From an uncultured Chloroflexia bacterium (lineage in GTDB: Bacteria; Chloroflexota; Limnocylindria; Limnocylindrales; CSP1-4): a DNA stretch of 64,000 nucleotides. Position numbers and translations under genes: made by a program. The first letter of the stretch is position 1. Each line of letters starts with the position of its first letter. Shown here piece by piece: positions 5,517 through 7,382 of the stretch. The notes beneath the pieces were generated by a model, which made no database searches, had not been told where the DNA came from, and worked only from the letters and a program-made list of their open reading frames with translations. Location of the stretch: contig CAVQJC010000001.1 of NCBI GenBank assembly GCA_963712745.1, positions 224,001 to 288,000 of the forward strand. Direction: 5' to 3'.

Positions 5517-7382
5517 CTACTCGAGGTAGTCCTTGAGCTTGCGGCTGCGCGACGGGTGGCGCAGCTTGCGCAGCGCCTTGGCCTCGATCTGGCGGATGCG
5601 CTCGCGCGTGACGTTGAACTCCTTGCCCACCTCCTCGAGGGTGCGGGAACGGCCGTCTTCGAGCCCGAAGCGCAACTGAAGCACGCGCCGCTCGCGTCCG
5701 GAGAGTGAGTCGAGCACCGCCTCCACCTGCTCCTTGAGCAACTGGTGCGAAGCGGCATCGGCCGGGGCCAGCGCCGCACGGTCCTCGATGAAGTCGCCCA
5801 GGTGCGAGTCCTCTTCCTCACCGATGGGCGTCTCGAGCGAGACCGGCTCCTGCGACACCTTGATGATCTCGCGGACCTTGTCAGGCGTGACGAGGACGAC
5901 GTTGTCGATCTCCTTGTCCTTCTTCTTGGGCAGCTTCACATCGTACGAGTGGCCCGAGCCGATGATGCCGTAGTCGTCGCTGACCTTGGCCTTCACCAGC
6001 CGGTCGTCGAGCACGTGGACCGTGATCGTGGCCTGCTTGCTGGTGTTGACCTCGATATGCGCGAAGTTGGCGGCACCGCCGAGCCGCTTGAGGATCTCGG
6101 TGGCGAACTCCGGCCCTACCGTCATGGCGAAGGCGATCTCCTCCACGGTCGGCTCACGGCCGAGCTCCTGGAGCAGGCCGCGCGAGACGCGGATGAGGCG
6201 GTTGATGGTCTCGACCATGTGCACCGGGATGCGGATGGTCCGCGCCTGGTCAGCGATGGCGCGGGTGATGGCCTGGCGGATCCACCACGTCGCATAGGTC
6301 GAGAACTTGAAGCCCTTCTCGTAGTCGAACTTCTCGACCGCGCGGATGAGGCCGATGTTGCCCTCCTGGATGAGGTCCAGGAACGACATGCCGCGGCCGA
6401 TGTACTTCTTGGCGATCGAGACCACGAGGCGGAGGTTGGCCGAGGTCAGCGACTCGCGGCCCTCGCGCCCGTAGCGCACCACGATGCCCCGGCGATTGCG
6501 CGGCTTGAGGTGCTCCTGGGTCATCTCCGGGTCCCAGCCCCAGGCGTCCATGACCTCGGCTTCCTTGCCGGCCAGGACGTAGCGGCGCAACGACTCGTGG
6601 GCCAGGTGCTGTGACCAGTCGTAGAGCGCGCGCAGGCCCTTGTTGTCGCGGCAGTCCTGGTTGCCGTTGTGCACCGACATGTAGCTGAAGTCGACCAGGC
6701 TCAGGAACTTCTCGGTGTCGGGCGCTTCGTTGTACTCGGCCAGGACCTTCTTGGCGTCCTTCAGGAGCGCCTTGACCTCATCCTCGCTGGCCGCACGCTG
6801 GGCGCCGGTGAGCTTGAGGTCTGGTGCGGCGACGAGCAGGCCGTCCTTCTCGGCCGACGCGAAGGCACCCGAGACGATGCGCGCGGAATCGGCCGCGAAA
6901 TAGTCGAGCCGGTGCTCGGGCCGCTTCTGGCGGGAGGCGTGCTCGGTGTCGTTCTTGGTCCACTCCCACAGCGAGAGCGTGGCCCTCCATGGTTCCTCGA
7001 CGATCTGCTCGCCCAGCTCGATGGCCTTGGCGAAGACGACCTCCTCCTCGGCGTTGAGGAGCGGGACCTTGCCGATCTCCTTGAGGTACATGCGGACGGG
7101 GTCGTCGATGCCGACCATGTCCTGGGCCATGGCTTCGAGCTCGGCCTGGGTCGAGGGCTTGTCGTCCTCGTCCTCATCGATCTTGGCCGGGGGCTCCTGC
7201 CAGGGCTGCTTCTGCGATTCTTCGACCGTGACCTGCACGCCCAGCTCCGCGGCCGCGCCGAAGTTGCGCGGTGCGCCGATCACGTCTTCCTGTTCGGGCT
7301 GGACGACGTCGCCGTCGATATCCCGCTTGCCGCGCTCGAGGACCGAGGCCACGAGCAGCTTGTCGGTGGCGTCAGTTGCCAT
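5517..7382 (-). CDS. rpoD: RNA polymerase primary sigma factor RpoD/SigA with two large insertions
   Basis: [12 protein letters not shown] (1.2), [13 protein letters not shown]...[30 protein letters not shown] (2), VSLETPIG (3.2), [29 protein letters not shown] (4.2). Lies downstream of dnaG. Confidence 0.97.

Follow-up and report, generated by a model that had tools for sequence, protein, structure and literature searches.

The 64,000-nucleotide stretch of DNA analysed here (the window) comes from contig CAVQJC010000001.1 (positions 224,001 to 288,000; assembly GCA_963712745.1) of an uncultured bacterium of the Limnocylindrales, Chloroflexota, and encodes on its minus strand a 621-residue group-1 sigma factor, RpoD, which is interrupted by an unusual insert. 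The evidence presented below indicates that this housekeeping sigma factor carries a degenerate pseudo-EIIB domain, remotely related to the EIIB(Glc) component of the sugar phosphotransferase system (PTS), in the loop of its domain 3, and that this domain probably acts as a lineage-specific accessory module. An original prediction, made by a model from the sequence, had quoted 76 extra residues at this site, and these are the exact translation of window positions 5895-6122 (minus strand), corresponding to residues 421-496. The gene and the parts of the insert are located as follows.

5517..7382, minus strand: rpoD, group-1 sigma factor with the insert (open reading frame, translation, Pfam, TIGR02393)
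5895..6122, minus strand: the insert as first delimited, residues 421-496 (translation, alignment to relatives)
5934..6113, minus strand: EIIB-like core, residues 424-483, predicted as a helix, a two-strand hairpin, a short helix and a second two-strand hairpin (AF2 model, Foldseek, profile matches)
5895..5933, minus strand: conserved Lys-rich linker, residues 484-496, in place of the last EIIB helix (alignment; low model confidence)

The insert interrupts sigma domain 3 between helices 2 and 3 (region 3.1) and splits the Pfam region 3 family (PF04539) in two, the best stretch matching profile positions 32-77 over residues 498-543; when the whole genome is searched, positions 1-41 and 31-77 of the profile flank the insert on either side. 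Bacillus subtilis SigA (7ckq_F) aligns with residues 211-246 on the N-terminal side of the insert and with 248-294 on the C-terminal side, leaving a single residue against 77 in the window protein, while the alignment with Escherichia coli sigma70 picks up again at residue 488 after the insert, which is covered by 0 of 47 matched PDB sigma sequences. The original prediction put about 2 residues at this site in group-1 sigma factors; in the nearest insert-less relatives, however, the loop (AM-SKGQEVVV-TPDKV) has 8 residues, and the net gain is therefore 70 residues, placed between the E and the V of the insert-less loop. A full-length AlphaFold2 (AF2) model, which is poor (mean predicted local distance difference test score, pLDDT, 60.6; sigma2 below 50), comes without coordinates and is used for the order of elements only, gives sigma3 helix 1 at residues 387-407, helix 2 at 413-422, then the insert (a helix at 424-433 and strands at 440-446, 452-457, 472-476 and 479-483) and helix 3 at 500-511. 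The host protein is the housekeeping sigma factor rather than a spare paralogue, since it is both the sole RpoD-like match and the sole protein with region 3 above the Pfam cut-off in the genome from which the window was taken (20 contigs, 84.6% complete, 5% contamination).

Moreover, the in-frame insertion is supported by independent data. Each junction is spanned by contigs from other public runs (5894/5895 by X3 record 28 and X16 record 19; 6122/6123 by X16 record 20), and the insert is present in 95 of the clusters described below. An RNA library is among the runs that bridge the junctions, which is not proof of transcription, and the conserved parts of rpoD draw contigs of many organisms, so that depth and uncovered bins (e.g. 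5958-6083 in X1 and X3) are uninformative. One metagenome contig in run X1 covers window positions 5891-6133 with 31 letters in place of the insert, and on the minus strand these encode the loop without the insert (AMSKGQEV...), which shows that relatives of both kinds share one sample.

Residues 400-520, used as the query of a word-indexed search, gave a list of 120 clusters from several sources, the source names being Candidatus Limnocylindrales or Chloroflexota. Among these listed clusters, 95 cover the insert (91 fully, 4 over 64-96% of the query) and 25 match the 21% flank only. The homologous inserts at this site fall into two types: type A, that of the window, has 76 or 83 residues and begins with TVGPEF, and type B has 78-80 residues and follows the pattern TLG..N..IF.AVGGRDNI..FEVRGDK.P..RL. 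The two types share 28-38% identity and are homologous over all 76 columns (hhalign probability 99.0, E 3.9e-18). In a type A subgroup (P0054-P0058), 7 extra residues (e.g. GMDGNPD) between GGxxN and the first strand account for the length of 83. Across 30 inserts G15, G16 and N19 are invariant, P65, K66 and E71 (alignment numbering) reach a conservation of 90% or more, and the linker LPKKK(D/E)KE, which is nearly invariant, is more conserved than the domain core. For type A orthologues dN/dS is 0.24 in the insert, 0.25 in the non-conserved region (NCR) of the same sigma factor and about 0.03 in regions 2-4; for type B the values are 0.56, 0.49 and 0.05-0.08 (sigma core), with synonymous sites partly saturated. 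The GC content at third codon positions (GC3) stands at 0.947 for the insert against 0.932 for the remainder of rpoD, and inserts of different lineages differ at 32-51% of DNA positions. Together, the dN/dS and GC3 values mean that the insert is old, has the GC3 of its host gene and is under purifying selection of the relaxed, NCR-like kind. Whether relatives conserve the insert was a check proposed in the original prediction, and the 95 clusters and dN/dS values below 1 speak for conservation.

The link to EIIB is carried by several kinds of comparison. When single inserts are scanned against Pfam, PF00367 (PTS_EIIB) is the family matched by most of them (18 of 30, best E 1.6e-5), and every other family is matched by at most 2. 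A profile of the 30 inserts gives 12 matches at E <= 10 against all PDB sequences; the best seven are E. coli EIIB(Glc) without exception, either by itself or as part of PtsG, and the first of these, 1o2f_B, is matched with E 8.9e-4 over 56 aligned residues. In an exhaustive hmmsearch of the profile against 1.84 billion representative proteins there are 16 matches at E <= 0.001, comprising 4 Pfam-confirmed sigma fragments, a 69-residue fragment (P0125) without a Pfam match, 8 bona fide PF00367 proteins with strong and mostly tandem domains, and 3 repeat proteins that we regard as noise. Compared by hhalign with 14 EIIB domains cut from the hmmsearch proteins, type B gives a probability of 96.1 (P 2.8e-9) and type A one of 77.9 (P 1.8e-5), and the GGxxN of the insert aligns to the LGGxxNI of EIIB, after the N-terminal helix. 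Proteins P0128, P0129, P0131 and P0133 (328-431 residues) show an unusual architecture of their own, with 3 to 5 tandem PF00367 domains and no EIIC or EIIA domain detected.

Structural prediction points in the same direction. An AF2 model computed from the insert alignment (pLDDT 79.6, predicted template modelling score 0.65) consists of a helix, a hairpin, a short helix, a second hairpin and a disordered tail (insert residues 69-76, pLDDT below 50), and the same elements appear in the insert alone and in the full-length context. A Foldseek search of this model against PDB, a kind of check suggested in the original prediction, places EIIB(Glc)-type structures at all of ranks 1-6 (3ipj, 3bp8_C, 9a6a_B, 3bp3_A, 9a3b and 1o2f_B) with probability 0.99-1.00 and TMq 0.52-0.61, the next match dropping to 0.44. 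As modelled, the core of the insert thus has the EIIB(Glc) fold with the last helix missing. We accept that the insert is remotely homologous to EIIB(Glc), for which type B and the fold provide most of the evidence. The earlier proposal of a catalytically dead EIIB(Glc)-type fold in sigma region 3 is therefore sustained by the PDB profile, the search of 1.84 billion proteins, hhalign, AF2 with Foldseek, and the missing Cys.

The features on which EIIB chemistry depends have been lost. A Cys is found in 0 of 30 inserts, the position of the phospho-accepting residue being occupied by Asn in the window and by Arg in type B within a turn that is 3 residues longer, and no conserved His is seen in the insert alignment. 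Type B keeps one of the TRLR arginines and type A none, and the last EIIB helix is replaced by the LPKKK(D/E)KE linker, which leads back into sigma helix 3. The motif description given in the original prediction is accurate in these respects: GG and N are invariant, all 30 inserts lack Cys, and NTSKQATI stands in place of C-x-TRLR. The loss of the Cys, of both TRLR arginines in type A and of the C-terminal helix makes a role as PTS phosphocarrier impossible and the insert a pseudo-enzyme domain, that is, a pseudo-EIIB. In addition, PF00358 (EIIA-Glc) is found in 0 of 10 insert-bearing genomes, and PF00367, PF00358 and PF02378 (EIIC) have no match in the window genome. The only PTS parts found in that genome, among the families searched (PF00367, PF00358, PF00381, PF02378 and PF05524), belong to an operon on the minus strand of locus L006 (5838-9054, about 119838-123054 of contig G000:C1) that encodes EIIA-Man, HPr, DhaK, DhaL and a 259-residue protein with the EI N-terminal and mobile domains, and which is a PTS-dependent dihydroxyacetone kinase system. 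The lost residues, taken with cognate partners that were not found, place the pseudo-EIIB outside a working PTS.

The insert has a narrow and patchy distribution. The insert profile matches 11 of 401 genomes sampled from the class, and 10 of these matches lie in rpoD, all in the family of the window (f1), where they comprise 5 of 7 genomes of genus g1 plus that of the window, 3 of 13 of g2 and 1 of 1 of g30, i.e. 3 of the 65 genera sampled. The eleventh match, in genome G314, is weak (E 8.2e-4), lies outside rpoD and supports no claim. Across the phylum, 2 of 401 sampled genomes match the profile, both in f1. The first-look filter scored 14 candidates per genome, and five non-matching genomes checked directly each have an insert-less primary RpoD (5 of 5). 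The insert-bearing RpoD is the only RpoD-like sigma factor in g1, while g2 genomes (L012, L013, L023, L024, L025, L022) have a second one of about 50% identity that bears no insert and, where checked (L012, L023), has no dnaG upstream. Genome G387 carries a third RpoD-like sigma factor, with 55% identity.

A tree of the RpoD core, from which the insert columns were removed (103 rows, thinned at 97% identity from 119), shows type A as a single clade of 45 rows, with support 100, that nests within insert-less sequences, the main type B clade (30 rows) as sister to insert-less g2 sequences, and two more type B lineages, G367 and G333, each beside insert-less sequences, so that at least 5 changes of insert state are needed. 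A single insert-bearing clade, a hypothesis framed after the tree had been seen, is rejected by an approximately unbiased test (delta lnL 184.8, p 4.5e-6) on 53 rows, three long-branch rows having been dropped and 47 redundant rows left out; DnaG, RpoB and RpoC identities agree with the placements in the RpoD tree. The insert-less loops of f1 (10 sequences) all read S(K/R)GQE(V/I) and the loop of the sister family is equally long, and on these grounds we regard the insert-less state as the ancestral one. If so, a single origin with later exchange of alleles, or repeated loss, would explain the patchy pattern. The 40-codon segments flanking the insert show no donor-like jump in identity in G333, G367 or the window, but with flanks this conserved such a jump would hardly be visible.

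How might such a domain act? We envisage that the insert folds as an autonomous small alpha/beta domain in which the core of helix, GGxxN, hairpin and D is kept, and that it would serve as a lineage-specific accessory sigma module in the manner of the sigma NCR or the sequence insertions of the beta and beta' subunits. It is probably docked on sigma3 helix 2 through hydrophobic residue 418, and it would be surface-exposed in the holoenzyme, close to the upstream border of the -10 region, where it may tune initiation by offering an extra contact surface to a partner protein or to promoter DNA. The docking proposal comes from a comparison of 111 primary RpoD sequences, in which position 418, on helix 2, is E in 21 of 21 insert-less proteins, F in 51 of 51 of type A and L or M in 39 of 39 of type B, the single column of the conserved core that cleanly separates the insert states; this switch suggests that the domain packs on helix 2. 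Because close relatives do without it, the insert should be dispensable for basic sigma function.

Several observations weigh against an EIIB-derived accessory module. Taken alone, the window insert has no Pfam match at E <= 10, and a second scan, of 10 inserts, gives no PF00367 match for any of the 7 other type A inserts, while its 3 type B inserts all match the family, but at 14.6-18.5 bits, under the 27-bit cut-off, and over profile positions 2-16 only. With no Pfam match for the type found in the window and relatives that score below the cut-off, the link is a remote one, made through the more EIIB-like type B inserts. Foldseek gives no match at E <= 0.001 (best 0.049), a search of the ESM Atlas with the insert gives no usable match, and the C-terminal helix of EIIB is absent. 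The net charge of the insert, 0 to -6, is neutral to acidic, with the Lys-rich linker as the sole basic patch, which argues against a mainly DNA-binding role. The loop between helices 2 and 3 would face the part of sigma3 closest to the DNA, in the vicinity of the extended -10 contact. No binding partner of the insert was found. Finally, the dN/dS of the insert is about ten times that of the sigma core, and its distribution is patchy even within genera, both of which fit a merely tolerated passenger.

The last of these points lead to the main rival of the accessory-module reading, namely that the insert is a near-neutral passenger domain in a tolerant surface loop, persisting without a specific function. 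Its occurrence in 3 of 65 sampled genera, with presence and absence both seen within g1 and within g2, its NCR-like dN/dS of 0.24-0.56 and the lack of a partner would all be expected of such a passenger. Moreover, no beta or beta' indel of at least 3 residues separates insert-bearing from insert-less genomes (10 RpoC and 7 RpoB sequences), so that changes in these subunits do not track the insert; G323 gave no match in this comparison, and fragmented genes kept G345, G333, G367 and G053 out of at least one of the two sets. In the window genome the core subunits are encoded at locus L066 of contig G000:C1. The rpoC and rpoB genes of G345 (L072/L077 and L084/L091) and the rpoB gene of G053 (L087/L090) are each present as two adjoining pieces in different frames, and are probably frameshifts or assembly errors. 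Nevertheless, we consider a passenger unlikely, given that dN/dS is below 1 and that the residues determining the fold are common to types A and B at 28-38% identity. The nearly invariant linker, the consistent change of residue 418 with the insert, and the long retention implied by host-like GC3 and by 32-51% DNA divergence between lineages speak against it as well.

A different history for the accessory module is raised by the gene order in a sister family (f2), a single genus with genomes of about 1 Mb. Bona fide PF00367 domains occur in 2 of 201 sampled genomes of the class, both in f2, and in 0 of 60 f1 genomes; within f2, 17 of 42 genomes have them. As far as the contigs reach, all 12 of the f2 loci fetched have the order rpoD, ptsH, EIIB, EIIA(Glc), EIIC, and the free EIIB, which is cut by the contig end in one locus, has 81-83 residues with both the Cys and TRIR. 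One such locus was read further upstream, with dnaG found before rpoD and 2 nucleotides between rpoD and ptsH, and is located as follows.

L039 3325-10086, plus strand: f2 rpoD-PTS locus (also L036, L037 and L040-L049)

Elsewhere in the phylum PF00367 is found in 14 of 401 genomes, in the order EIIC-EIIB-EIIA, and rpoD lies near 0 of these 14 loci within the 1.5 kb fetched on each side. In this bacterial order, then, EIIB-type sequences are found either inside rpoD or directly after it. The adjacency in f2 could be a coincidence, a trace of the donor of the insert, or a functional link. The architecture of the insert would arise if the stretch that begins in the sigma3 loop and ends with EIIB were duplicated in tandem and then underwent an internal deletion. 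The f2 EIIB next to rpoD scores 15-17 bits against the insert profiles and unrelated EIIB domains score 8-22, and sequence similarity therefore does not single out the f2 protein as the donor. A tblastn search with the f2 operon proteins reveals no PTS remnant near rpoD in the window or in 14 f1 loci (all E > 0.09). Complex prediction with f2 sigma domain 3 (residues 586-660) and the free EIIB returns a score of 0.00, which, having been obtained without controls, is neutral on binding.

Taken at its most ambitious, this gene order would mean that the insert is what remains, in fused form, of a direct physical connection of the PTS to the housekeeping sigma factor. The ancestor of this bacterial order would have had the arrangement dnaG-rpoD-ptsH-EIIB-EIIA-EIIC with a free cytoplasmic EIIB, which would have bound sigma domain 3 depending on its phosphorylation state; some f1 lineages would have captured a copy of the neighbouring EIIB into the sigma3 loop, and the phospho-switch would then have decayed to leave a constitutive module. 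We regard this scenario as a long shot. If true, it would mean an undescribed signalling route from the PTS to RNA polymerase, with its two components neighbours in one lineage and fused in another; in any case, the position of a split glucose-type PTS next to rpoD in f2 raises the question of an EIIB-sigma interaction in this bacterial order.

That the EIIB resemblance arose by convergence or chance, the insert being an unrelated small alpha/beta domain, seems to us quite improbable. Such a reading could draw on Pfam scores that stay under the gathering cut-off and are confined to the GGxxN motif, on Foldseek E-values of 0.05-0.09, on the hhalign probability of 77.9 for type A alone, and on the f2 EIIB encoded next to rpoD, which resembles the insert no more than other EIIBs do (15-17 against 8-22 bits). 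Four different methods agree on EIIB, however, without a competing family, the match spans 56 residues and so extends beyond the motif, and 8 of the 11 non-sigma matches among 1.84 billion proteins are EIIB, the other 3 being repeat proteins.

We find it very improbable that the insert is a working PTS-coupled sensor, bound or modified by HPr or EIIA and reporting carbon status to the housekeeping sigma factor. The EIIB fold itself, the known use of EIIB(Glc) as a docking surface for EIIA(Glc) and Mlc (1o2f and 3bp8 are among the matches), the presence of HPr, EIIA-Man and an EI N-terminal fragment in the window genome, and the ptsH-EIIB-EIIA-EIIC genes directly after rpoD in 12 of 12 f2 loci are all compatible with it. 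Against these stand the inserts without Cys (30 of 30) or a conserved His, the TRLR arginines gone from type A, the 0 of 10 insert-bearing genomes with PF00358, a window genome without an EIIC or EIIB family match, and the location of its remaining PTS parts in a dihydroxyacetone kinase operon. The carbon-status signal that, in the original prediction, the insert could dock on the housekeeping sigma factor accordingly finds no support in the gene content, EIIA(Glc) having been found in none of the 10 insert-bearing genomes and EIIC not in that of the window. An artefact or mobile insertion (mis-assembly, an intein, or a small transposable element that is read through), which nothing favours beyond the fact of an insertion, can be dismissed because the insert is in frame, is conserved in 95 listed clusters from several sources, has junctions bridged by contigs of other runs, lacks direct or inverted repeats at its boundaries, has GC3 like the remainder of rpoD, and, at 76 residues without Cys, is too small for an intein, given the usual intein sizes and splice residues. 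Intein and mobile-element candidates were rejected on size, the absence of Cys and of flanking repeats, and host-like GC3.

Outside domain 3, RpoD is a conventional group-1 sigma factor by its domain matches. PF00140, PF04542, PF04539 and PF04545 each score above their own Pfam cut-off, and the protein passes the NCBIfam model TIGR02393 (RpoD_Cterm; 381.5 bits against a cut-off of 354); full-length RpoD equivalog models stay under theirs (e.g. NF006666, 508 against 572), as expected with a 76-residue insertion. The NCR is helical in the full-length AF2 model, with pLDDT 84-94. The remaining features are these.

7372..9327, minus strand: dnaG (primase), open reading frame whose 3' end overlaps the rpoD start by 11 nucleotides
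7005..7103, minus strand: sigma region 1.2, residues 94-126 (PF00140)
6483..7004, minus strand: sigma NCR between regions 1.2 and 2, about residues 127-300 (gap between the Pfam region 1.2 and region 2 matches)
6237..6443, minus strand: sigma region 2, residues 314-382 (PF04542)
6123..6224, minus strand: sigma domain 3 helices 1 and 2, residues 387-420, including F418 (AF2 helices 387-407 and 413-422)
5754..5894, minus strand: sigma domain 3 helix 3 and region 3.2, residues 497-543 (PF04539 profile positions 32-77 at 498-543; helix 500-511)
5556..5717, minus strand: sigma region 4, residues 556-609 (PF04545)

The dnaG gene lies directly upstream of rpoD, and the overlap of 11 nucleotides between its end and the rpoD start codon (window 7372-7382) suggests translational coupling within a dnaG-rpoD operon. 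In 14 of 14 loci of relatives, whether insert-bearing or insert-less, a DnaG homologue likewise precedes the primary rpoD.

Few bacterial proteins are more conserved than primary sigma factors and, to our knowledge, the NCR between regions 1.2 and 2.1 is the only known lineage-specific insertion in them. Contacts of EIIB(Glc) with Mlc and with EIIA(Glc) use the surface around the active-site Cys. The insert resembles PTS EIIB (PF00367; PtsG IIB in 1o2f_B, 3bp3, 3bp8_C and 1iba) in its succession of helix, GGxxN, beta hairpin, D, short helix and second hairpin, but differs in having no Cys, a longer turn, a reduced TRLR and a Lys-rich linker for the C-terminal helix; it is, moreover, embedded in a sigma factor rather than in a PTS permease, and an EIIA or EIIC partner was not found in the genomes searched. 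The Mlc-EIIB (3bp8) and EIIA(Glc)-EIIB(Glc) (1o2f) complexes show that its fold family can serve as a docking surface for a regulator or for EIIA, although the surface around the Cys position is the most diverged part of the insert. With the sigma NCR and the insertions of the beta and beta' subunits it shares the character of a lineage-specific folded surface insertion in a conserved transcription subunit, and its constraint is similar to that of its own NCR (dN/dS 0.24 against 0.25); unlike these, it lies in domain 3 (region 3.1) and has a fold taken from a sugar-transport phosphocarrier. Two reports deal with lineage-specific insertions of RNA polymerase beta/beta', e.g. Si3 (PMC10895346, PMC11515920), and a passage of a third defines sigma3 as regions 3.0-3.1 (PMC4496699). 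The sigma-factor passages of a further report count sigma factors in Limnocylindria families and in these passages mention neither RpoD, EIIB nor phosphotransferase (PMC13212565). In full-text literature searches we found no description of a sigma factor with EIIB or another domain in region 3, in line with the original prediction, which knew of no described sigma factor with this architecture.

A known protein is thus seen in a new domain architecture, with a pseudo-EIIB in domain 3 of the housekeeping sigma factor; in the samples searched, this architecture is limited to parts of a single Limnocylindria family. To have a folded domain within domain 3 of the only housekeeping sigma factor of a widespread group of soil and sediment Chloroflexota would be a novelty in sigma architecture, and the close relatives with and without the insert constitute a natural experiment. 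As a metabolic phosphocarrier fold recruited into the transcription machinery as a pseudo-enzyme, it provides a clear case.

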